Positions 14,755 through 39,597 of a DNA stretch of 39,860 bases are shown piece by piece. The DNA comes from a virus: positions 1 through 39,860 of IMG/VR virus record IMGVR_UViG_3300028806_000002. The stretch is one strand, 5' to 3'. The translations under genes were made by a program, and so were the position numbers. Under the pieces are notes generated by a model that had not been told where the DNA came from, made no database searches, and saw nothing but the letters and a program-made list of their open reading frames with translations. Positions within the stretch are counted from its first letter, which is position 1. Each line of letters starts with the position of its first letter.

Positions 14755-17700
14755 TTATCTCAACCTTCTAGCTCCGATAAAACCGAAACCTGTCATAGTG
14801 CTAACTGAGAATACAGCTTGTTCTACCAGATAAACTGTAGTTGTCGATGCTAATGACAATCTCATACTTCCTATACAAGCAGCAAACGATATTAATGAGG
14901 ATGAACCAGTTTGTGTTATATTATTATTTTCCGATCCCACTGTTGTTGGAAAAGTTGCAGATGTGGTACTAATAGCCCCTTGTATAAAGGATGTAACAGT
15001 TGAACCTCCGCCTTGAAAACACGCGTTAGCACTAATTGACCAATCACCTGGTGTAAGAGATATACTTGTAATATTAGTAGGTGTTGCATTAGTTAATGCA
15101 ATTCCACTTCCTAATAATACGGATGAACTAATATATTCGCCAATATTTCCTACAGGAGCATTATCATTTGTTGTCGTACCTTTGATTGAATGAGATAGTG
15201 TGGTAAATGCAACGTTAGCTGCCATTGTCGCACTTGATGTGAAAGTAGGCACAACTGATATTGCATCAGGTTTAAAGGTGGTTAATGTACCGATAACTGC
15301 TATAGCACTAAAACCTACTGCACCCGTTGTGGTAAAAGTAGTCGTACCAGATGCTGCACCTATTGCAACTGTTCCTCCTTGGTAAATATTATTTCCCCAC
15401 ACATTAAGTGTGGCACTAGAAGTTTGAGGAGTAATATTTAGCTGTCCGCTTGTAACATTTAGAAATGTATTGTTAGATAAAAATATATTAGAAACAACCG
15501 CACCTGTTGCTCTGATTGTTACTATATCAAACACATTACCTGTTATTATTCCGCTAAAATTAGTAAGTGTAAGATTTACGTATAAACTTATTGGCAATAT
15601 GTTGTTGCAATCTTTTATCATGCCTTGTAACAAACTAGTTGCAGGCCCTGTTATTGTCCATGTCACAGGGTTTGTTCGCAAATTGGTAAGAAACATTGTA
15701 GGATTTGTTGCACCCGTAAAAGTGAGTGTTACATTTCCTACTCCCTGAAAACCATCGATATACAAAATACCATTAGTCGAAGTACCCCACGAAGAATCCA
15801 AAGTAATCGATGATGTGGTTAGGATAGAATTATTACCTTGTAAAAACACCCACGGTTTTACAGTTAATCCACCTTCTGAGAAGTTACCATAGCAAATCAA
15901 TACATATATTTTTGATGCTGATGCTGTCGTTATCTGCGACATAGCATATGCAATAGTTAGATACGGCCTTAATACGCTTCCATTTCCTACAGCATTTACA
16001 CCACCTGTTGAAGATACATAAACATAAACAAAACTATATGCAGCAGGTAGGATAGTTCCTAGTGCTGTATCTATACCTTGCAAGTTAGCAAGAACACGTG
16101 GATTAGCTGCGGTATAATTTACTGGCGTGAAACCCGCTACGATAGAATCAGATTGTGATGAATAAGTTATATTTGATTGTGAAGCGCCGCTTGAGAAAGT
16201 TGGAATAACACTTAATAGCCCTGGAATAAATGTAATACCGGTATTAGCTAATGTGATTGCTCCTATACCTGTTGTATTATCACAATAAATTATTGCAGAT
16301 CCAATGGAATTAATAGCAAGTGTTCCAACATTATAAAATGAATTTCCTGCGATAGTTGAAAGTAAAGAAGTTGAGGCAGTAGTTACATTTATAGATATTG
16401 TTAAAGGAACGTAAAAAATATTTCCTTCTAATGACAAAAAGAAATTTGATGATGCTGTTGAAAAGTTGAATGTTGGATTTGTTCCAATATTCACACTTTT
16501 CATGGTGACATTACAGTTAGTTAGAGAGAATAATGTTCTAGCATTAAATTGTGCATTAGAACTATTAATCATATTAAAATTTGTTGTTGACGTTCCACTT
16601 CCAGCACCAGTAAAAGTGAAAGCATTAGTTGTAGTAGGATACATATTAATAAATGAGACTGTAGAATTTCCATTTGAAGATAAATCCATCGTAACGCTAA
16701 AACTGAAATAAAAATTACTTATATAAACATTTCCTGGATTTGTTCCCCAAGACGTATCCTTCCCAACCGTTCCTGAAATGGTTAAAGAAGAATTATTACC
16801 ATTTATATAAATCCACGGTTTTAAATTTATGGATGACTCTGAGAAAATTCCATAACATTGTAAGAAAAATATATTAGTACTAGAAGCAGTTGTTATCTGA
16901 GACAGTGTATAAGCAATGGTTTTGTATGGACTATTAACACTTCCATTTCCAACTGCATCTACTCCATCTACAGATGATACATATACATATTTATATGTAT
17001 ACGGAGAAGGCGGTAATAATGCTAATTTAGCATCTATACCCGCTAGATTTGCATGTAAAGAACTTGTCAAATCTGGTGCAACCGCAATAGGGGTATAATT
17101 TACTGGGGTATAATTTGAATTGAGTCCATTAGATAAACTTGTTAAATTTATTACTGCAGCATTTACAATGGTTGGTACTTTATAAGAAACAACATCAATA
17201 TTAACTGTAAGGTTTGGATTGGTTGCAGTTAATGTTCCACCTATTCTACTTGAATAAAAATGTACAGCAGTTAATATTCCACCACTAGCAGCACCAGTAA
17301 GTGTGATATTTCCTGAAAAACGATTTGCCATTAAATAAGTAGTACAAGTTGCAACGAATGATTTTATTTGACCAACCCCGAGAGAAGTCAAATTATTATC
17401 GTTTAAATAAACAATAGCATTTTCATTATCAACTTGGTTAAGTTGACAATTACTAATATATGCATTGGGTGTAGTAGTAGCGCTACCGTAAACGTTTATA
17501 GAACGTAATCCACCTAATCCACTACTAGAATTCAAATTATTAATAACTAGTAAATGAGCAGTAGAATTGCTATATGATGAGAAATCAAAAATCATATCAA
17601 ATGATGTATAACTTAAATTTGATATTACTAACTTACCTGCCGTTGTAGTTCCCCATGATGCATCTAATCCGCAGTTAGCAAATAACGTCCACACAATACC

Positions 17701-19251
17701 CTCTGAGAATGCAAACAAATTAACCCAAGGTTTAAAATTAACTGCTGCGGTTTCAGTAATTGTTCCACCAATTAATCCTATAGAATAAGTATTGGTAGAA
17801 CTATTCGTTGTGATCGTAGTTAACGCATGTGCAACTGTTGCATATGGATTTTCAAAATTACCAGTTCCTGTTGAATCGCTTCCATTATTTGATACGAAAA
17901 CATAATTATTTGCAGATACAATAGAAGCAAGTGCATTATCGATTCCATGTAAATGAGCCTGTACCGATGTTGTGAGAGTTGGTGAAGTTGCGACCGGAGT
18001 GTAATGACTTGGTGTATAGTTCGCATTAAGTCCATTGGAAATGCTAGATAAATTTGAAGTTGCACCATTTGCAAGAGTAGGAGATACATAACCTGATGAA
18101 TCTTGCAATAATAATACCGTTGCACCATCACCAGTTAAACCCGTAGAAATTCTAGTTGAATAAAATGATGCAGTTGTTGACGGACCCGTAGCAAGTCCAT
18201 TTATAACAGCAGTGCCTATTGTATTTCCAATGCTATACAAAGTATTGGCTGCTAAGTTAGCATCTAATTTTCCTGAGTTTGCGATAAGTGATACAATTTC
18301 AGAAGAATCAATTTGTACGAAGCAATTGCTATAGTTCAAGAATAGTATCAAACAACCTGTAATATAAAAACTAGGATTGTTATTTGCACTTCCTTTTAAT
18401 ACAAATGAATCACTTCCAAATATATTTTCTATAAAAATTGTATTAGAGGCTGTATTTGTGAATGCACTGAAATCTAATGTAAAAGATCCGACGGTAGACG
18501 TAAAATTAGATAAACTCATCGTACCATTTGCAGTCGTTCCCCACGATGCATCTAAAGAAGTACTCACCAAATGCCATATAACGCCTTCAGATAATCCAAC
18601 GATTGAAACAAATGGTTTAAATGCAACTGATACCGTTTCAGTAATTGTTCCACCAAGTAAACATATATTAAATGGATTAGTAATAGAATTTGTTGTTATC
18701 GTAGACATTGCATGTGCAACGGTTGCATATGGATAGTTAATACTTCCATTGCCTGTTGAGTCATTACCATCTTGTGCGACAAAAACAGAATATATTGAAT
18801 GGTTTCCTACGGATGAGGGAGTTTTCCATATACCATCACCAGCATAAAAAGTATTAGTAGCAGCACCCGTTCCATGGTTAAAATTTAGAGGGTTTACTTG
18901 CACTAATGAAGGTAATGTACTTGAACCATCGACTTGGTTTCCATTAGCAGGATATACCGCAATTTGATTTGCAAGACCAGGCAACACAGTTCCGCTAGTC
19001 ACGCCGCCAAGTAATACTAAAGTTGAAAATGTACTATCAGTAAATTCATAAAGTGCATTTCCATCGATTGCAGCAACAAGTATCGTGTCTGAAATAAACC
19101 ATCCCCAAACACCTTTGTTTAAATCATTTATGACTGGCATTTGGTTTAATATGTAATTTGTCGTTGCAACGGTTGCCAATGTGTCAGAAGTTGCAATTCT
19201 TACAATACTTACATTATTTGGTACATCCCTTACTATACTTATGATTGGCAT
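14755..19251 (-). CDS. Giant tail fibre/tailspike (1498 aa) with four tandem beta-helix-like modules
   Basis: Module heads: SVFVAQDGNDSTGNGSINYPYATVAHAM, YVFVSNNGSDSTGTGNFENPYATVAHAL, YVYVSSVDGVDAVGNGSVNSPYKTIAYTL, YVYVSSTGGVNAVGNGSVLRPYLTIAYAM. Linkers are of the form NYTP.NYTP...L.GID.AL. Confidence 0.8.
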   Translation of the reverse strand: MPIISIVRDVPNNVSIVRIATSDTLATVATTNYILNQMPVINDLNKGVWGWFISDTILVAAIDGNALYEFTDSTFSTLVLLGGVTSGTVLPGLANQIAVYPANGNQVDGSSTLPSLVQVNPLNFNHGTGAATNTFYAGDGIWKTPSSVGNHSIYSVFVAQDGNDSTGNGSINYPYATVAHAMSTITTNSITNPFNICLLGGTITETVSVAFKPFVSIVGLSEGVIWHLVSTSLDASWGTTANGTMSLSNFTSTVGSFTLDFSAFTNTASNTIFIENIFGSDSFVLKGSANNNPSFYITGCLILFLNYSNCFVQIDSSEIVSLIANSGKLDANLAANTLYSIGNTIGTAVINGLATGPSTTASFYSTRISTGLTGDGATVLLLQDSSGYVSPTLANGATSNLSSISNGLNANYTPSHYTPVATSPTLTTSVQAHLHGIDNALASIVSANNYVFVSNNGSDSTGTGNFENPYATVAHALTTITTNSSTNTYSIGLIGGTITETAAVNFKPWVNLFAFSEGIVWTLFANCGLDASWGTTTAGKLVISNLSYTSFDMIFDFSSYSNSTAHLLVINNLNSSSGLGGLRSINVYGSATTTPNAYISNCQLNQVDNENAIVYLNDNNLTSLGVGQIKSFVATCTTYLMANRFSGNITLTGAASGGILTAVHFYSSRIGGTLTATNPNLTVNIDVVSYKVPTIVNAAVINLTSLSNGLNSNYTPVNYTPIAVAPDLTSSLHANLAGIDAKLALLPPSPYTYKYVYVSSVDGVDAVGNGSVNSPYKTIAYTLSQITTASSTNIFFLQCYGIFSESSINLKPWIYINGNNSSLTISGTVGKDTSWGTNPGNVYISNFYFSFSVTMDLSSNGNSTVSFINMYPTTTNAFTFTGAGSGTSTTNFNMINSSNAQFNARTLFSLTNCNVTMKSVNIGTNPTFNFSTASSNFFLSLEGNIFYVPLTISINVTTASTSLLSTIAGNSFYNVGTLAINSIGSAIIYCDNTTGIGAITLANTGITFIPGLLSVIPTFSSGASQSNITYSSQSDSIVAGFTPVNYTAANPRVLANLQGIDTALGTILPAAYSFVYVYVSSTGGVNAVGNGSVLRPYLTIAYAMSQITTASASKIYVLICYGNFSEGGLTVKPWVFLQGNNSILTTSSITLDSSWGTSTNGILYIDGFQGVGNVTLTFTGATNPTMFLTNLRTNPVTWTITGPATSLLQGMIKDCNNILPISLYVNLTLTNFSGIITGNVFDIVTIRATGAVVSNIFLSNNTFLNVTSGQLNITPQTSSATLNVWGNNIYQGGTVAIGAASGTTTFTTTGAVGFSAIAVIGTLTTFKPDAISVVPTFTSSATMAANVAFTTLSHSIKGTTTNDNAPVGNIGEYISSSVLLGSGIALTNATPTNITSISLTPGDWSISANACFQGGGSTVTSFIQGAISTTSATFPTTVGSENNNITQTGSSSLISFAACIGSMRLSLASTTTVYLVEQAVFSVSTMTGFGFIGARRLR

Positions 19252-34281: not shown

Positions 34282-36459
34282 TTATTCACGTTTTGCAACT
34301 TTTGTCTTTTCATGTGCTGCCTTATGTTGTAATTCCTTATGATGCATTTCTTTTTCATGATGCAACTGACTAGCGTGCGTGAGCATCTTAATCATGTTCT
34401 GAGAATTAGTTATTTGCATATCAACCCCCATACGCTGATTTTCAGCCGTATAACGCAATATAGTCTCTTGCAACTGAGCTGCTTCTTTCTGCTTATCAGC
34501 TTCTAACTTCGCAAATCCAAGTGACATATCTTGTTGCGTCTCAAGTGCCTTTCGTTGCAATTCTTGTTTCTTCAATTCTAATTCCTGCATCTTCATTTGA
34601 GATTCTTGTTGTGCTTGTTGTGCTTTTTGTTGCATCTCTTGTTGCTTGAGTTGTAACATCATTGCATCAGGTGAAGGTTGCGGAGGTTTAGGAGGTAATG
34701 GTTTACCAGTCTTTCCAGCTTCAATTATTTCAGGCGGAACTAAAGTTCTTAATCGATTACGTAATTCCATATTGTTATCTAGTGGAAGATTTTCAGCGTA
34801 TAGATCTGCAATCATTGGGAACACTTGACCAGCCCTATCAGCTTGCAAAACGGATTGTAGCGATAGCAGTGCTTCTTGCTTCTGTCCCTCGTAAGAAGGC
34901 CCCGCTTTAAGTCTGATATTATACTTACCCTTAGTCATATCATTTTTCATTTGCAACCCATACTCATCCATAGGTTGATTGATATTGACTGTCTGAGATT
35001 CAGATTCCGGCATATTCAATACAAGTGAGCGCTCAGTATCATAGATTTCAGGTATCCACTCGTTTATGATTTCGCCACCCGTTGCAATTGCGATATTTAT
35101 TGAATTGAATGGTGTTGCTGTATTACGTGTACCTCTATTTGTTCGAGCTTCGATTGCAGTGCCAGAAACTTCATTGCCTAACTCGCCCATTTGTGTATCA
35201 TACATACCCGTGCCGCTCTGGATATCCATTAAGGTACGTTCGTATTGTTGTACCAGGGATTGTGATAACTCGGGCGGCTTTAGTTGTTCAGGCTTAGCAC
35301 CGCTAGCCGTTTCATCGTAATATAACGCACCATTTACTACCGAAGGGTCACGCCATTGCTGCTGTGCATCAGGAGATGCTGCGCACTTACGCGGCATGAT
35401 GAATTGATCAAACCTAGATATTTTCAGCATATAAGCTGATTGTGTTGCGAGATAATTTAGATATTTCTGTGCGTCTTTGACATCTTTGAAGAACGAACGT
35501 GTGATCTGCTGACCTTGTTTAGAGAAATAACTTTTCTGGTCAACAAAAACAACGGGCAATAATGTGGCTTTAGAAGGTAAATAAGTCTCTTCAAGTACAA
35601 AATCACCCGCTATCTGGGTATGTTTTATTTTATACTTTATTGATTCACGTTTATCAACAACTGTAACAGCTTGGCCATTACTAATAATATATTTTTTACC
35701 GTCAAACTTTACTTTCTCTAACTTTTTAAATTCTTTATCATTAACAATAGAACCATCTGATAGTTTGTAAATTGTTATCTCTTCAGGTTCTTTATTGTAA
35801 TCATCGACAATTGTAATCGAATCATCATCAGCAAAGGCAATTGTGCTATCTTCGGTTATTGCAGTCGTTCCAATCTGCGATTCAATGTCACGACCCCATG
35901 TATCTCTAAATTTTCTGCGTGATATTCTCGTTTTATATCCTGAAAACATGCCATCTACTTTACAAACATGTTTTGCTGATATATCCCAGTAACAACGATT
36001 AGGGTCTTCGAACGGATAAATCTTTATTATTTGCTCAAAACTTTCATTATCTTTGTATTCAGTATCTATTCTATATGCACCAAATCCACCGCAAGTCGAA
36101 TGACTAAATGCATTTTGATATACACTCTTAGCATCTGAGTTAAAACTGATATCTTTGACAATTGCAGCACGAACTTGCGCGGTTTCTGGGGGAACATCTT
36201 CGGAAGGCATGATCTGCATATTCGGTGTATTGAATATTTGCTCACCGCAAAGATGATTATGCAGAACGCCAAGTTTATTGAATACTAATGGGATTTTGTT
36301 ATAACGTTCGAATAACTCAGATTCATTTTCTCGCCACTGGTCGCCCATGATGAAATCGAGCCACTCATAGTACATAGACCTGTTTATAGTCCAATACTTC
36401 TCCCACTTATCGACTCTATCCCTTATCTTCCGGCATAGTTCCGGATTTTTGCTTGGCAT
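34282..36459 (-). CDS. Portal protein (P22-like, 725 aa, long C-terminal coiled-coil barrel)
   Basis: The N-terminus DFIMGDQWRENESELFERYNKIPLVFNKLG fits portal motifs. The Q/K/E-rich C-terminal helix resembles the P22 gp1 barrel. Position relative to terL and scaffold also fits. Confidence 0.8.
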   Translation of the reverse strand: MPSKNPELCRKIRDRVDKWEKYWTINRSMYYEWLDFIMGDQWRENESELFERYNKIPLVFNKLGVLHNHLCGEQIFNTPNMQIMPSEDVPPETAQVRAAIVKDISFNSDAKSVYQNAFSHSTCGGFGAYRIDTEYKDNESFEQIIKIYPFEDPNRCYWDISAKHVCKVDGMFSGYKTRISRRKFRDTWGRDIESQIGTTAITEDSTIAFADDDSITIVDDYNKEPEEITIYKLSDGSIVNDKEFKKLEKVKFDGKKYIISNGQAVTVVDKRESIKYKIKHTQIAGDFVLEETYLPSKATLLPVVFVDQKSYFSKQGQQITRSFFKDVKDAQKYLNYLATQSAYMLKISRFDQFIMPRKCAASPDAQQQWRDPSVVNGALYYDETASGAKPEQLKPPELSQSLVQQYERTLMDIQSGTGMYDTQMGELGNEVSGTAIEARTNRGTRNTATPFNSINIAIATGGEIINEWIPEIYDTERSLVLNMPESESQTVNINQPMDEYGLQMKNDMTKGKYNIRLKAGPSYEGQKQEALLSLQSVLQADRAGQVFPMIADLYAENLPLDNNMELRNRLRTLVPPEIIEAGKTGKPLPPKPPQPSPDAMMLQLKQQEMQQKAQQAQQESQMKMQELELKKQELQRKALETQQDMSLGFAKLEADKQKEAAQLQETILRYTAENQRMGVDMQITNSQNMIKMLTHASQLHHEKEMHHKELQHKAAHEKTKVAKRE

Positions 36460-36486
36460 AATAAGTTAATCCTTTAACTTATCGCT

Positions 36487-36516
36487 ATTATAGCATTTTG
36501 GTGTATTTTACACCAA
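36487..36516 (-). promoter_or_regulatory. Extended -10 promoter upstream of the portal gene
   Basis: On the minus strand: TTGGTG, 18-nt spacer, (TGC)TATAAT. The -10 box lies ~28 nt upstream of portal ATG 36459. Confidence 0.5.
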
Positions 36517-37021
36517 TATCATCCTTGCCTTAGTAAACAAAACAGTACAACACAATACAACACAATACACTATTAAAAACCCTTACCTTACATTTCAGCA
36601 CAAAACAATACACCACACCACAACACATGACAGGAAAAAATTAAAACCCTTACATTTCCTTACAACGCATAACATCACAATGCATTACATATCGGCACAA
36701 TACATCACAATATTAAAAACCCGTACATTTCCTTACAATGCATTACATCACACAACAATACGCCACAACACAAAACAAAACATCACATGACACTATTAAA
36801 AACCCGCACATTTCCTTACAACGCATAACATCACAATGCATTACATATCGGCACAATACATCACAAAATAAAAATCCTTACCTTACAAGACATTACCCCA
36901 CAACACAGCACGCTACAACACATTACAAAATTAAAACCCTTACCTTGCCTTACGCCACAGGACAGCACATCACATAACAGAACCTGACATGACAATATTA
37001 AAAACCCTTACCTCGCCTTAC
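36515..37021. repeat. Repeat array A: 8 copies of a 62-83-bp unit
   Basis: Plus-strand core is ATTAAAAACCC(K)TAC(A/C)TT(TC)CCTTACAA. Copies start at 36515 (degenerate), 36572, 36640, 36712, 36795, 36867, 36930 and 36997. Inter-core segments are A/C-rich and related to each other. Confidence 0.9.
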
Positions 37022-37072
37022 GAAACAGCACGCTACAGCACGCTACAGCACATCACACCACATTACACAATA

Positions 37073-37104
37073 GTTTCAATCCACGCGCTCGTGAAGAGCG
37101 CGAC
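37073..37104 (-). CRISPR. Solitary type I-C-like CRISPR repeat (single copy, no array)
   Basis: The minus strand reads GTCGCGCTCTTCACGAGCGCGTGGATTGAAAC. This shows the I-C hallmarks: GTCGCGC 5' end, 7-bp stem CGCGCTC/GAGCGCG with a 5-nt loop, and an 11-nt TGGATTGAAAC tail. It is a GC-rich island in an AT/AC-rich spacer. Confidence 0.8.
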
Positions 37105-37137
37105 TACAAAACAGCACAACACAACACACAACATCAA

Positions 37138-37166
37138 AGTATAATTATTAGTTACTCTCACGCCAA
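37138..37166 (-). promoter_or_regulatory. Candidate promoter reading into the solitary repeat
   Basis: On the minus strand: TTGGCG, 17-nt spacer, TATACT. It overlaps the 3' end of ORF 37148..37693, with the -10 box ending 33 nt upstream of the repeat. Confidence 0.35.
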
Positions 37167-37693
37167 TTCGTCACAACAAATCGTCCATATATACCTTTTC
37201 TAGCTGGCCTAAAATCACCTAACCCTATTTTGGTTCCAGCATCGTCAATCAAAGTACGGATGAATTTTGGGCTAAACATCTTTAAATCCAACGTCAAAGT
37301 AAAATCTATGCACCAATTATCTAGCCTAGGTCTATGACAAACGATTCGACCACCAGTTGACGGAACAACGACAGCCCTGCTATCAACTTCCCACGTTTCA
37401 GGCGATTTAAAATACACGATTTCGCCTAAAATCATCACACCAGCAGGAACTAAAGAACTTCTAGCAGTCGTTACTTTTACCTTACCATCTTTATGAAATT
37501 TACCTGCTTCAACCAAGCAAGCAAAAATATTCACAGTAGGATAATATAATTTTTCATCCTCATCGACATAGCAAACACGTCTAGCAGCTTCGCGAGGTAA
37601 TATATCTTTATCTTTTTTTACTTTCTGCTCATCAATATTAAAACGATTCATCAGAAGCGGTGTTATCCCTGTTATTTCTATATCAATATTCAT
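37148..37693 (-). CDS. Hypothetical 181-aa protein with RAMP-like motifs
   Basis: Track ORF. Its SD is the double AAGG of array copy B1 (TAAGGTAAGGATATTAAATG). Motifs in RAMP order: IEITGITPLLMNRF, LYYPTVNIFACLVEAGK, GLGDFRPARKGIYGRFVV (Gly-rich loop-like). Confidence 0.7.
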   Translation of the reverse strand: MNIDIEITGITPLLMNRFNIDEQKVKKDKDILPREAARRVCYVDEDEKLYYPTVNIFACLVEAGKFHKDGKVKVTTARSSLVPAGVMILGEIVYFKSPETWEVDSRAVVVPSTGGRIVCHRPRLDNWCIDFTLTLDLKMFSPKFIRTLIDDAGTKIGLGDFRPARKGIYGRFVVTNWRESN

Positions 37694-37695
37694 TT

Positions 37696-37986
37696 AATAT
37701 CCTTACCTTAGATTACAGCGCAATACAAAACAGCACGTCACAATACAACACATTATTAAAAACCCGTACATTTCCTTACAACACAAAACACTACATTACA
37801 TAACGCCACAATACATCACATCACAGAAAATTATTAAAAACCCTTACATTGGATTGCATTAGAGCACAAGACAAGACACTACAACACAAGACAGCACAAT
37901 TAAAAACCCTTACATTTCCTTACAACACAAAACATTACATAACGCCACAATACATCACGTTTAAAAACCCGTACATTTCCTTACAA
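37696..37986. repeat. Repeat array B: 5 copies of the same unit
   Basis: Cores at 37696 (degenerate, doubles as the RBS), 37755, 37833, 37899 and 37960. Spacers are homologous to one another (ACACAAAACAYTACATAACGCCACAATACATCAC). Confidence 0.9.
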
Positions 37987-38076
37987 CACAAGACAGTACA
38001 ATACAGTACAATACAAAACATCACGTTTAATGAAACAAAAAAATATACATAGATAATTGATACTTGTAAACATTTA

Positions 38077-39597
38077 CTATCGAAACATCCCTCTTTCGTG
38101 TGGCATTAACTTGGGTACTTCAATTGCTGTCTGTACGCCGTGAAACCCTCCAGCAAACGTTAAACACAACGCATCAGCACCATCAGGGCTTGGCAATCCT
38201 CTTGCCCGTAAATCATCCTTCGATTCAATCTGTACCTGCCCATTTGAGTTTTCTTTGAAGCCTAATGAACACAATTCGCCGTGCAATGTGTCCTCGTCCG
38301 GTATCTGCACTGGCATATCTTGATATAGCCAATCTCGCATATCACCCCACAATTCCGCACGCTGATTCTTGTAACGTTCCTTGTCATTAGCACTACGAGC
38401 AACATTTACACCTTCAACACAGTCATAACCCATTTCATTTAATCTGTCCACAACGCCTGCACCGATTCCAATGCAATCAATATATACTTTGTCGGGTTTT
38501 TCCTCGGTTATAATGCGCTTAACACGGCCTGCAATTTCCATCGTATTGAGATGCGAGACACGTTCTAAGTTATAAGCACATCTTCCCTTACGGCGAATAA
38601 TAGCAGTCCGATCTCTATCTGATATCGCAACATCCACCCCAATAATAAGCTTGCTACCCATATCAACTTTTGCAGCACGCGCAAATTCAACGTACTTAGA
38701 ATTGATAAACACGTTGTGAATAGGGTTTTTAAATGCTTCAATTGAATTAAAAGGGTACTCAACATTAAATCGTTCTCTTCCTGCATCAAAATCCTTTGAA
38801 AACTCGTTAATTTTTAACCTACGCCAAGATAAATTATCATTAGTTAACCCATTTTTTCCATACTGAGACACTAAATACTCTTCTTCATCCGATAAATGCA
38901 TATTTTCGGAGTTATGCGAGTACTCATCATTCCAATACCATGGCAAAAATATACTTTGATACTCACTATCAGGCGACATACCTGATAACCAGCGCTCATG
39001 GAAGTAATTTCCGATACCATTTGCCGTAGATTCTAGGATAATTTCCGTACCTGGTTCATTTGAGATTGCCTGCAAGATACCTTTGCTATGATCTTCAGCA
39101 AATGCCCAAAATGCGACTTCTGAACCGTGGAAAAGCTGCACGGTTTGCGACCGACCGACTGCTTTATTGCCTGCAGTACCAATCGCGTAGCCTGAATCTA
39201 ATTGCTTAAAGTTTAATTCCTTTGCATTATCCGTATTCGGCTTAGGGCATAATCCTGGTTCCAAGTTTTCATTAAACCGTTTGGCCATATTGAACAGATT
39301 ATTAGTTGCTTCTTTATCGTGCGTGAGAATAAATGCTTTTTTACCGCGCGAAGTGATGATCTGATGGAAGAACCTAGCCTGTATATATGTTGAACAACCT
39401 TGTTGTCGTCCCTTTAAAATGCAGGCACGCACACGTCCCGTCGATTCCTTTTGACGAGCAAGACGTTCATGTAAGTAGGACTGTGCGCGATTAAACGTGA
39501 AATACTTTTTAACACCGGCCTTGTCTTTAACAATCAGAAATCGCTCGGCAAATTTCTGAAAATCCCTAATTGAATCTAATTTAGCTTGACTTATCAA
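38077..39597 (-). CDS. terL: Terminase large subunit
   Basis: 506 aa. Deviant Walker A in ACILKGRQQGCSTY, FILTHDKEA, and a C-terminal nuclease-like IGVDVA...YIDCIGIGAGV...DGADAL. The only in-frame start is TTG 39597. Confidence 0.85.
   Translation of the reverse strand: MISQAKLDSIRDFQKFAERFLIVKDKAGVKKYFTFNRAQSYLHERLARQKESTGRVRACILKGRQQGCSTYIQARFFHQIITSRGKKAFILTHDKEATNNLFNMAKRFNENLEPGLCPKPNTDNAKELNFKQLDSGYAIGTAGNKAVGRSQTVQLFHGSEVAFWAFAEDHSKGILQAISNEPGTEIILESTANGIGNYFHERWLSGMSPDSEYQSIFLPWYWNDEYSHNSENMHLSDEEEYLVSQYGKNGLTNDNLSWRRLKINEFSKDFDAGRERFNVEYPFNSIEAFKNPIHNVFINSKYVEFARAAKVDMGSKLIIGVDVAISDRDRTAIIRRKGRCAYNLERVSHLNTMEIAGRVKRIITEEKPDKVYIDCIGIGAGVVDRLNEMGYDCVEGVNVARSANDKERYKNQRAELWGDMRDWLYQDMPVQIPDEDTLHGELCSLGFKENSNGQVQIESKDDLRARGLPSPDGADALCLTFAGGFHGVQTAIEVPKLMPHERGMFR

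Follow-up and report, generated by a model that had tools for sequence, protein, structure and literature searches.

The 1.6 kb island at positions 36460–38076 of a 39,860 nt stretch of viral DNA (IMG/VR record IMGVR_UViG_3300028806_000002, positions 1 to 39,860; hereafter the window) carries a single credible gene, flanked on both sides by arrays of short guide RNA units. We put at about 85% the probability that the island is a complete, accessory-gene-less Viral Interference Programmable Repeat (VIPR) system of a ∼40 kb phage with a P22-type portal, working by the mechanism proposed below. VIPR was described in two 2026 preprints (bioRxiv 10.64898/2026.04.26.720920 and 10.64898/2026.04.26.720927); its protein, Vipr, is a minimal single-RRM RAMP proposed to be the ancestor of Cas5/6/7, and the type II exemplars come from Escherichia phage SUSP1 (structure PDB 36pp) and a P. 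fulva prophage. A preliminary description of the island, made from the sequence, had taken the 181 aa open reading frame (ORF) at 37148–37693 for an orphan with a RAMP-like order of motifs, and had proposed that its product works with, or competes for, the RNA of an adjoining type I-C CRISPR repeat. The gene is instead an added member of the already named and characterised Vipr family, and not a new class.

The three motifs singled out in the preliminary description, IEITGITPLLMNRF (residues 5–18), LYYPTVNIFACLVEAGK (residues 49–65) and GLGDFRPARKGIYGRFVV (residues 157–174), are present in the order claimed and coincide with the most conserved columns in an alignment of 57 family sequences, in which the invariant positions include M15, F18, L49, P52, G64, G157, G159, D160, R162, P163, R165, K166, G167, G170 and F172. 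The protein is far from being without relatives. A word-index search returned 1,005 homologues. Among 1.84 billion cluster representatives (clusters at 50% identity), a profile search recovered 5,360 with E ≤ 1e-3, of which 1,911 had E ≤ 1e-10. The protein falls in PHROG 4652, a group without known function, and a homologue is encoded in 114 GenBank phage records, annotated as hypothetical in all of them; these tblastn matches include Felixounavirus and Suspvirus phages, Gordonia phages and Pseudomonas phage LESphi2. The Pfam and Cas profiles, which the preliminary description had suggested as a check, yielded no relative: searches of Pfam, NCBIfam and PADLOC with the 181 aa protein gave no family at E ≤ 1, and no Cas or RAMP sequence profile was matched. 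When the profile of the 57 homologues was compared with PDB sequences, there was a single match, 36pp, ‘SUSP1 Vipr protein’ (E = 2.2e-14, residues 3–176), and BLASTP against the SUSP1 Vipr gene product gave E = 2e-13 at 24% identity.

AlphaFold, run on the alignment, gave a confident model (pLDDT 92.4, pTM 0.86) with a β-α-β core, a hairpin at residues 102–124 and a G-loop at residues 157–171. The top Foldseek matches in the PDB were all Cas7-type RAMPs (Csm3, Cas7-11 domains, type VII Cas7 and Cmr4; E 6e-7 to 1e-5, TM 0.43–0.59), while in BFVD one of the structure matches was a phage ‘Cas system-associated RAMP superfamily protein’ and the others were viral proteins that are uncharacterised. 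The fold is thus that of an RRM/RAMP and not of an unrelated family, and the idea of a miniature phage RAMP is borne out. As for the supposed likeness to Cas5, Cas6 or Cas7, the Cas7 part stands, but neither Cas5c, Cas6 nor I-C Cas7 is among the 50 Foldseek matches listed.

Cryo-EM and mutagenesis of SUSP1 Vipr identified H17, R138, D177, W178 and R179 as the residues that hold the fixed trinucleotide of the guide (10.64898/2026.04.26.720927). In the alignment R138, in the thumb, corresponds to R121 of the window protein, and D177, W178 and R179, in the G-loop, correspond to D160, F161 and R162, so that four of the five contacts are conserved; across the family, R121, D160 and R162 do not vary, and position 161 is occupied by F or Y. 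The third motif is the RAMP G-loop, as the preliminary description had read it from its glycines; the first motif is RRM strand β1, and the second is a strand plus RRM helix 1, the main RNA-binding surface. On the strength of the profile match to 36pp and the confident model matching Cas7-type RAMPs, we assign the 181 aa protein to Vipr, which homology and the predicted fold make a single-RRM RAMP and a phage relative of Cas7.

Published vrRNAs comprise 9–16 pentanucleotide repeats and end in an invariable 3′ tail; within each repeat a trinucleotide is fixed and the NN is hypervariable (10.64898/2026.04.26.720920). In the island, 14 units lie head to tail on the vipr strand, five upstream of the gene (38023–37701) and nine downstream (37136–36523). 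A unit is built of 6–12 U-NN-U-G pentamers, then two or three constant pentamers (UAAGG, AAAUG or CRAGG, UAAGG) and then GUUUUUAA. A scan for pentamer runs, with the units phased, gave the following arrangement around the gene.

37701..38023, minus strand: upstream vrRNA array, units vr01–vr05, 7–10 variable pentamers per unit
38023–37969, minus strand: vr01
37957–37908, minus strand: vr02
37896–37842, minus strand: vr03
37828–37764, minus strand: vr04
37755–37701, minus strand: vr05
37148..37693, minus strand: vipr ORF, ATG start, 181 aa; predicted single-RRM RAMP with G-loop 157–171 and thumb hairpin ∼102–124
37107..37136, minus strand: vr06, a truncated unit of six variable pentamers without the constant tail; after UA it runs directly into the CRISPR repeat
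37104–37073, minus strand: type I-C CRISPR repeat GTCGCGCTCTTCACGAGCGCGTGGATTGAAAC, in crRNA (CRISPR RNA) sense on the array strand, 43 nt after the vipr stop codon
36523..37070, minus strand: downstream array of eight units, vr07–vr14
37070–37006, minus strand: vr07
36997–36938, minus strand: vr08
36930–36876, minus strand: vr09
∼36868–36804, minus strand: vr10
36795–36721, minus strand: vr11, 12 variable pentamers
∼36712–36648, minus strand: vr12
36635–36581, minus strand: vr13
36572–36523, minus strand: vr14

The scan found 14 runs, confined to the minus strand and to the island, and none in the other 38 kb of the window. Shuffled controls gave a mean of 0.17 runs for the whole window (maximum 2) and 0.11 for the non-coding sequence of the island (maximum 1). 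Across the 126 variable pentamers, positions 1, 4 and 5 (U, U and G) carry 1.53, 1.39 and 1.80 bits of information, the values at positions 2 and 3 being 0.18 and 0.13 bits; of the 16 possible dinucleotides, 15 occur. We conclude that the 14 units are vrRNAs, the guide RNAs of Vipr. The claim that vipr is the only gene of the island held up: the remaining ORFs, of 44–79 aa (36738–36977, 36989–37144, 37660–37803 and 37849–38052 on the plus strand and 36861–36995 on the minus strand), lie inside the arrays and are read-throughs of low-complexity repeats, with T/H/Q/N-rich or C/V-rich translations, rather than genes.

Some further features of the arrays were seen. Nine of the 10 NN dinucleotides are shared between vr10 and vr12, and a run of five between vr02 and vr04, which suggests array growth by unit duplication followed by divergence. 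Within vr07 (37029–37052, minus strand) there is a 10 nt tandem duplication (GUGCUGUAGC repeated); a ‘terminator-like’ call at the same place is a by-product of this duplication and not a G+C-rich hairpin. Every unit boundary reads GG/GUUUUUAA, for example at 37958–37968 and 37897–37907 (minus strand). RNase E prefers single-stranded, A/U-rich sites with the consensus R-N/W-U-U (slash, cleavage); the unit boundary resembles this consensus and may be a cut site of the head-to-tail precursor. A scan of Rfam for a ribozyme or structured tail gave no family except a weak CRISPR-DR9 match on the I-C repeat.

The arrays travel with the protein family. We compared 80 IMG/VR loci encoding Vipr homologues, with SUSP1 as a control in which the same run-finder detected four tracts around vipr, the number of vrRNAs published. 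Same-strand pentamer tracts adjoin vipr in most of the 80 loci, and close relatives share the unit design of the window. Position 4 of the pentamer is U (35–74% T) in the clade whose members are at least 60% identical to the window Vipr, and G in the clades at 37–50% identity (loci L003–L082). The locus encoding a 94% identical Vipr (L003, a 39.6 kb contig) has the same layout, in the order large terminase gene (terL), array, vipr, array and portal gene, with arrays on both sides; it has no guide in common with the window, and at most three consecutive NN agree, which is the expected signature of fast-evolving guides. No second gene was found in the vipr island of close relatives. Covariation between pentamer position 4, where the base is U or G, and the residue aligned to SUSP1 H17 was rejected, since N16 occurs in both U- and GG-using clades. 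Residue 54, which aligns with SUSP1 E71 in the pyrimidine pocket, is V, T, M, C or D in the U clade and mostly P elsewhere; it may be a specificity determinant, although the comparison is confounded by phylogeny.

The island sits between the portal and terL genes, both on the strand of vipr, and its own expression signals are as follows.

38077–39597, same strand as vipr: large terminase gene, terL (PHROG 2)
38042..38070, minus strand: promoter-like site TTTACA-17 nt-TATATT, at the array's 5′ end, immediately past the stop codon of terL, matching the consensus at 10 of 12 positions
37704–37700, minus strand: Shine–Dalgarno sequence AAGGA of vipr, in the degenerate constant tail of vr05 (UAAGGUAAGGAUAUUAA-AUG), 6 nt before the ATG
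34282–36459, same strand as vipr: portal gene (PHROG 156, E = 2e-85; Pfam P22_portal in the ENA copy)

That the Shine–Dalgarno sequence of the gene is derived from an array had been proposed in the preliminary description and proved right, and a unit tail doubles as the vipr ribosome-binding site also in four relatives (L003, L004, L006 and L007). Within the region, the promoter-like site agrees most closely with the consensus; such sites are no more frequent there than in shuffled sequence, so that the evidence for it is positional only, and it is a candidate start of the vrRNA/vipr transcript.

We propose that a single precursor, which would include the vipr mRNA as well as the 14 units, is probably transcribed from this site, just downstream of terL. 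Judged from the homologous SUSP1 protein, Vipr would engage the RNA with one protomer per pentamer, holding the UGU trinucleotide and exposing the two variable bases. The resulting Vipr filament would read double-stranded DNA with two bases paired and one skipped, and would block transcription of the bound gene. Natural VIPR targets are competing phages, prophages and satellites, and self-targeting is not seen (2026 VIPR preprints); here, too, such competitors within the same host are the likely targets. Among the 14 guides, the best self-matches in the window reach 65–92% of specified bases, which is the chance level, and the top fractions fall on the shortest patterns (vr06, 11/12; vr02, 12/14). 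Nor do the guides of 81 related loci match this phage better than guides with shuffled NN order, both distributions having a mean of 0.704.

One feature of the locus lies outside the published description of VIPR, whose loci were reported as not associated with CRISPR repeats (10.64898/2026.04.26.720920): a CRISPR repeat stands inside the guide array, an arrangement unique to this phage lineage. As the preliminary description had noted, a type I-C repeat follows the gene on the same strand, and it is a single canonical copy in the window, even when three mismatches were allowed and half-repeats were searched for. It keeps the canonical hairpin (7 bp, −12.5 kcal/mol) and is identical at 32 of 32 positions to the repeats of arrays in metagenome-assembled genomes (MAGs) of Casimicrobiaceae (41 copies), Lysobacterales (31), a gammaproteobacterium (17) and Fibrobacteria (5); the exact repeat is also found in an array of a Verrucomicrobiaceae MAG, making five lineages in all (loci L084–L091). 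These loci have a GC content of 40–55%, as compared with 35% for the phage. One of them, the Casimicrobiaceae contig DAISYG010000018.1 (L090), carries one further copy outside any array, which may be another solitary repeat unit.

Within the window, the repeat takes the place of a unit junction, that is, of the constant tail plus GUUUUUAA. Unit vr07 begins two bases after it without a preceding GUUUUUAA, and vr06 and vr07 joined would amount to 16 pentamers, exceeding every other unit. Assembly chimerism is unlikely as the origin of this arrangement because it is present in both ENA and Logan assemblies, which may derive from the same sample. The repeat is absent from the 80 related vipr loci, including L003, and the exact 32-mer occurs nowhere else in IMG/VR. 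The three matches from a search of JGI metagenomes for the repeat combined with a UGU tract are unrelated: one is another CRISPR array, one a microsatellite and one a eukaryote-like contig. Solitary CRISPR repeat units are known as RNA anti-CRISPRs, with RacrIC1 as a tested I-C example (PMC10651486). By analogy, the likeliest reading of the solitary repeat is as an anti-CRISPR RNA, a decoy transcribed together with the array, and not as a partner of Vipr; the sole promoter-like site for it lies ∼940 nt upstream, at the head of the array.

The preliminary description had seen in the gene a miniature Cas5/Cas6/Cas7-like protein with the I-C repeat as its RNA ligand, either as a handle or in competition with host Cas proteins. 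The RAMP-like fold accords with this, as does the position of the repeat shortly past the stop codon and on the same strand, but we consider it very improbable. Pentamer arrays accompany vipr in most loci, whereas the repeat is missing from all 80 relatives, including that with a 94% identical Vipr, and from the exact search of IMG/VR. Since the Vipr family exists almost wholly without the I-C repeat, the repeat is not its ligand; moreover, the G-loop and thumb residues match those with which SUSP1 Vipr holds the trinucleotide of the pentamer, and the protein matched neither a Cas profile nor, among the 50 fold matches listed, Cas5c or Cas6. A different connection is one in which the repeat serves as a processing or loading signal: either a host Cas nuclease would be enlisted for maturing the guides, or host Cascade would take up a vrRNA as a pseudo-spacer. 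Host Cas5c would cut at the base of the hairpin to leave vr06 with a 3′ hairpin and vr07 with the 11 nt 5′ handle of a crRNA. The repeat does lie exactly where a unit junction is expected, between a vr06 without its tail and a vr07 without GUUUUUAA that together would be longer than any other unit. It is in crRNA sense with its hairpin intact, and processing of I-C repeats by Cas5c is established (cited in PMC10651486). We nevertheless regard this as unlikely: the repeat is present at one of 13 junctions and only in this lineage, and array function therefore does not depend on it; a second repeat, from which a normal crRNA 3′ end would be made, is absent. Use as a Cas5c site or a Cascade loader is therefore less likely than use as a decoy, though more interesting. 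Slightly less doubtful, and still improbable, is the broader notion that the repeat was recruited as a working junction, giving a hybrid transcript that the phage Vipr would share with a host Cas nuclease or Cascade, for example in Cas5c-dependent maturation of vr06 and vr07, or as an RNA anti-CRISPR whose Cas7-loading ‘spacer’ is a vrRNA. If true, the hybrid transcript would for the first time connect VIPR guides with a CRISPR repeat both physically and functionally, and would bear on the proposal that CRISPR descends from VIPR-like systems.

Two further explanations deny the island a working guide system. It might be a decaying relic, in which the gene or the arrays are non-functional and the CRISPR repeat is a recombination scar; the lack of an accessory gene, the off-consensus pentamers that occur in several units and the target searches without matches could all be read in this way. 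Decay is nevertheless hard to reconcile with an intact ORF that keeps all the family-invariant residues and has a good ribosome-binding site, with 126 pentamers strongly conserved at positions 1, 4 and 5 while NN is free, with a repeat identical at 32 of 32 positions to those of active-looking arrays, or with the L003 locus, in which arrays again stand on both sides of the gene, as they do in other close relatives. We hold the chance of a relic to be very small. That the protein belongs to the virion or the packaging machinery is suggested by the position of its gene between terminase and portal genes, and by that alone. The RRM/RAMP fold speaks against it, and homologues are found in non-structural contexts (adjoining ligase and polymerase genes in Felixounavirus, beside the cI/cro region in LESphi2); a 90% identical Vipr (L092) is encoded in a genomic context different from that of the window. 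This last explanation is scarcely credible.

Several findings weigh against the assignment of the island to VIPR, or against particular parts of the mechanism. The fixed trinucleotide is UGU and not GGY, GG being retained in the pentamers of the constant tail. The constant 3′ part, UAAGG-(AAAUG/CRAGG)-UAAGG-GUUUUUAA, is predicted to be unstructured (z +0.8 to +1.0), and the units fold no better than shuffled sequences, whereas the SUSP1 clade has a pseudoknot. No second ORF of the vap kind is present in the island, while VIPR loci typically have vap. The residue aligned with SUSP1 H17, which contacts G1, is N16, and RNA recognition may differ in detail. Of 93 spacers from arrays with the same repeat, none matches the phage. 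With regard to targets, the 1 nt skip rule has been shown experimentally for type II VIPR systems only (2026 VIPR preprints); exact 1 nt skip patterns of vr11, vr10/12, vr04 and vr08 gave no matches in IMG/VR, and that of vr11 gave none in JGI metagenomes. In the published work, vap is found next to vipr ‘typically’ and is not obligatory, and beside the usual consensus YNNGG, ‘YNNNG’ is recorded as an alternative (10.64898/2026.04.26.720920).

Shorter patterns gave a possible target for one guide. Seeds of 16 bases from vr11 and vr10/12 had 38 and 40 matches in IMG/VR, about the number expected by chance. The vr10/12 seed matches were rejected as targets: they fall in unrelated proteins, including a DNA polymerase III α-like ORF, show no extension and are attributable to chance. 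Read as codons with a 1 nt skip, the NN string of vr11 becomes [SR][HQ][DE]FFVGIW[DE][KN]I, corresponding to the tape-measure motif DFFVGIWDKI. Eighteen of the 31 vr11 matches in ORFs of at least 100 aa lie in the sense frame and have the wobble position as the skipped one; 12 matches encode F[FV]GIW[DE][KN]I inside large ORFs, and the four inspected resemble tape-measure proteins. At the best sites, in tape-measure-like ORFs of two IMG/VR loci (L096 and L100), 22 of 24 NN bases match. A seed plus extension at 22/24 is expected ∼0.16 times by chance, and homologous contigs, which are not independent, inflate the count of in-frame matches, so that this result, too, must be set on the cautious side. 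From pattern matches only marginally above chance, vr11 is suggested as a candidate guide that would act on the tape-measure genes of other phages. Such a target would be coherent with a phage that itself has a P22-type portal and no recognisable tape-measure gene.

Over the window as a whole, there are genes for the phage head, portal and terminase and for a DnaD-like loader, and no cas genes were found. No tape-measure-like gene was recognised in the window. The ORF at 14755–19251 (minus strand, 1,498 aa) contains at least three internal repeat modules of ∼300 aa, with a recurring ...NPYATVAHA..ITTNS...KPW..., and looks like a repetitive tail fibre or spike rather than a tape measure. The window is exactly as long as the contig recorded for the protein (39,860 nt), and an ENA assembly of 39,856 nt has the same island at a permuted position (18.6–23.1 kb), which suggests a complete, circularly assembled phage genome. 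In LESphi2 (locus L001, 2893–5475 of the record), three GG-type pentamer tracts precede the vipr homologue, and two genes annotated without function (163 and 502 aa) follow it; this is a VIPR locus, in a clinical prophage that has been well studied, with candidate accessory genes. Homologues of these neighbouring genes, or of SUSP1 vap1, were found nowhere in the window (all E > 1).

The finding shows that the raw sequence sufficed to recognise a RAMP in a phage. The locus offers a compact example of the U-NN-U-G design, with 14 guides, no accessory gene and a tail of constant pentamers, and could serve as a minimal test case both for how Vipr reads U at the G1 position and for how head-to-tail arrays are processed. 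A conserved tape-measure motif reached through a wobble-skipping code would be a candidate natural target class; if the vr11 target is true, a phage without a recognisable tape-measure gene would be attacking tailed competitors. A CRISPR repeat in a VIPR array, in turn, would mean either an anti-CRISPR RNA that rides on array transcription or cross-talk between two RNA-guided systems.

Compared with the VIPR systems described so far, the window has a homologous phage-borne protein of ∼20 kDa with RRM, G-loop and thumb and with the conserved R, D, aromatic and R contacts to RNA; a vipr gene flanked on both sides by same-strand units of 60–100 nt, made of pentamers and a constant 3′ part; no self-targets above chance; and full turnover of guides between close relatives. 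It differs in that its Vipr is only 24% identical to that of SUSP1; in a trinucleotide, UGU as against GGY, that fits the ‘YNNNG’ alternative; in a tail of two or three UAAGG-type pentamers plus GUUUUUAA without a predicted pseudoknot; in units that abut head to tail; in the absence of vap and the position of the island between terL and portal; and in an array that contains a genuine CRISPR repeat. [quoted passage not shown] It is nevertheless only 10–14% identical to them and matches no Cas or RAMP sequence profile, and it has neither cas neighbours nor a CRISPR array, there being one repeat only. The period also differs, being 6 nt with five pairing bases in the Cas7 family and 5 nt with two pairing bases in Vipr, and the reading of double-stranded DNA with a 1 nt skip, known from the SUSP1 work, would set the window Vipr apart as well. 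Finally, the solitary repeat resembles RacrIC1-type RNA anti-CRISPRs in being a single copy in a phage, identical to real I-C repeats, with its hairpin kept and in a putatively transcribed non-coding context. Its anti-CRISPR function is putative and, unlike them, it stands not beside acr genes but inside an array of RNA guides.

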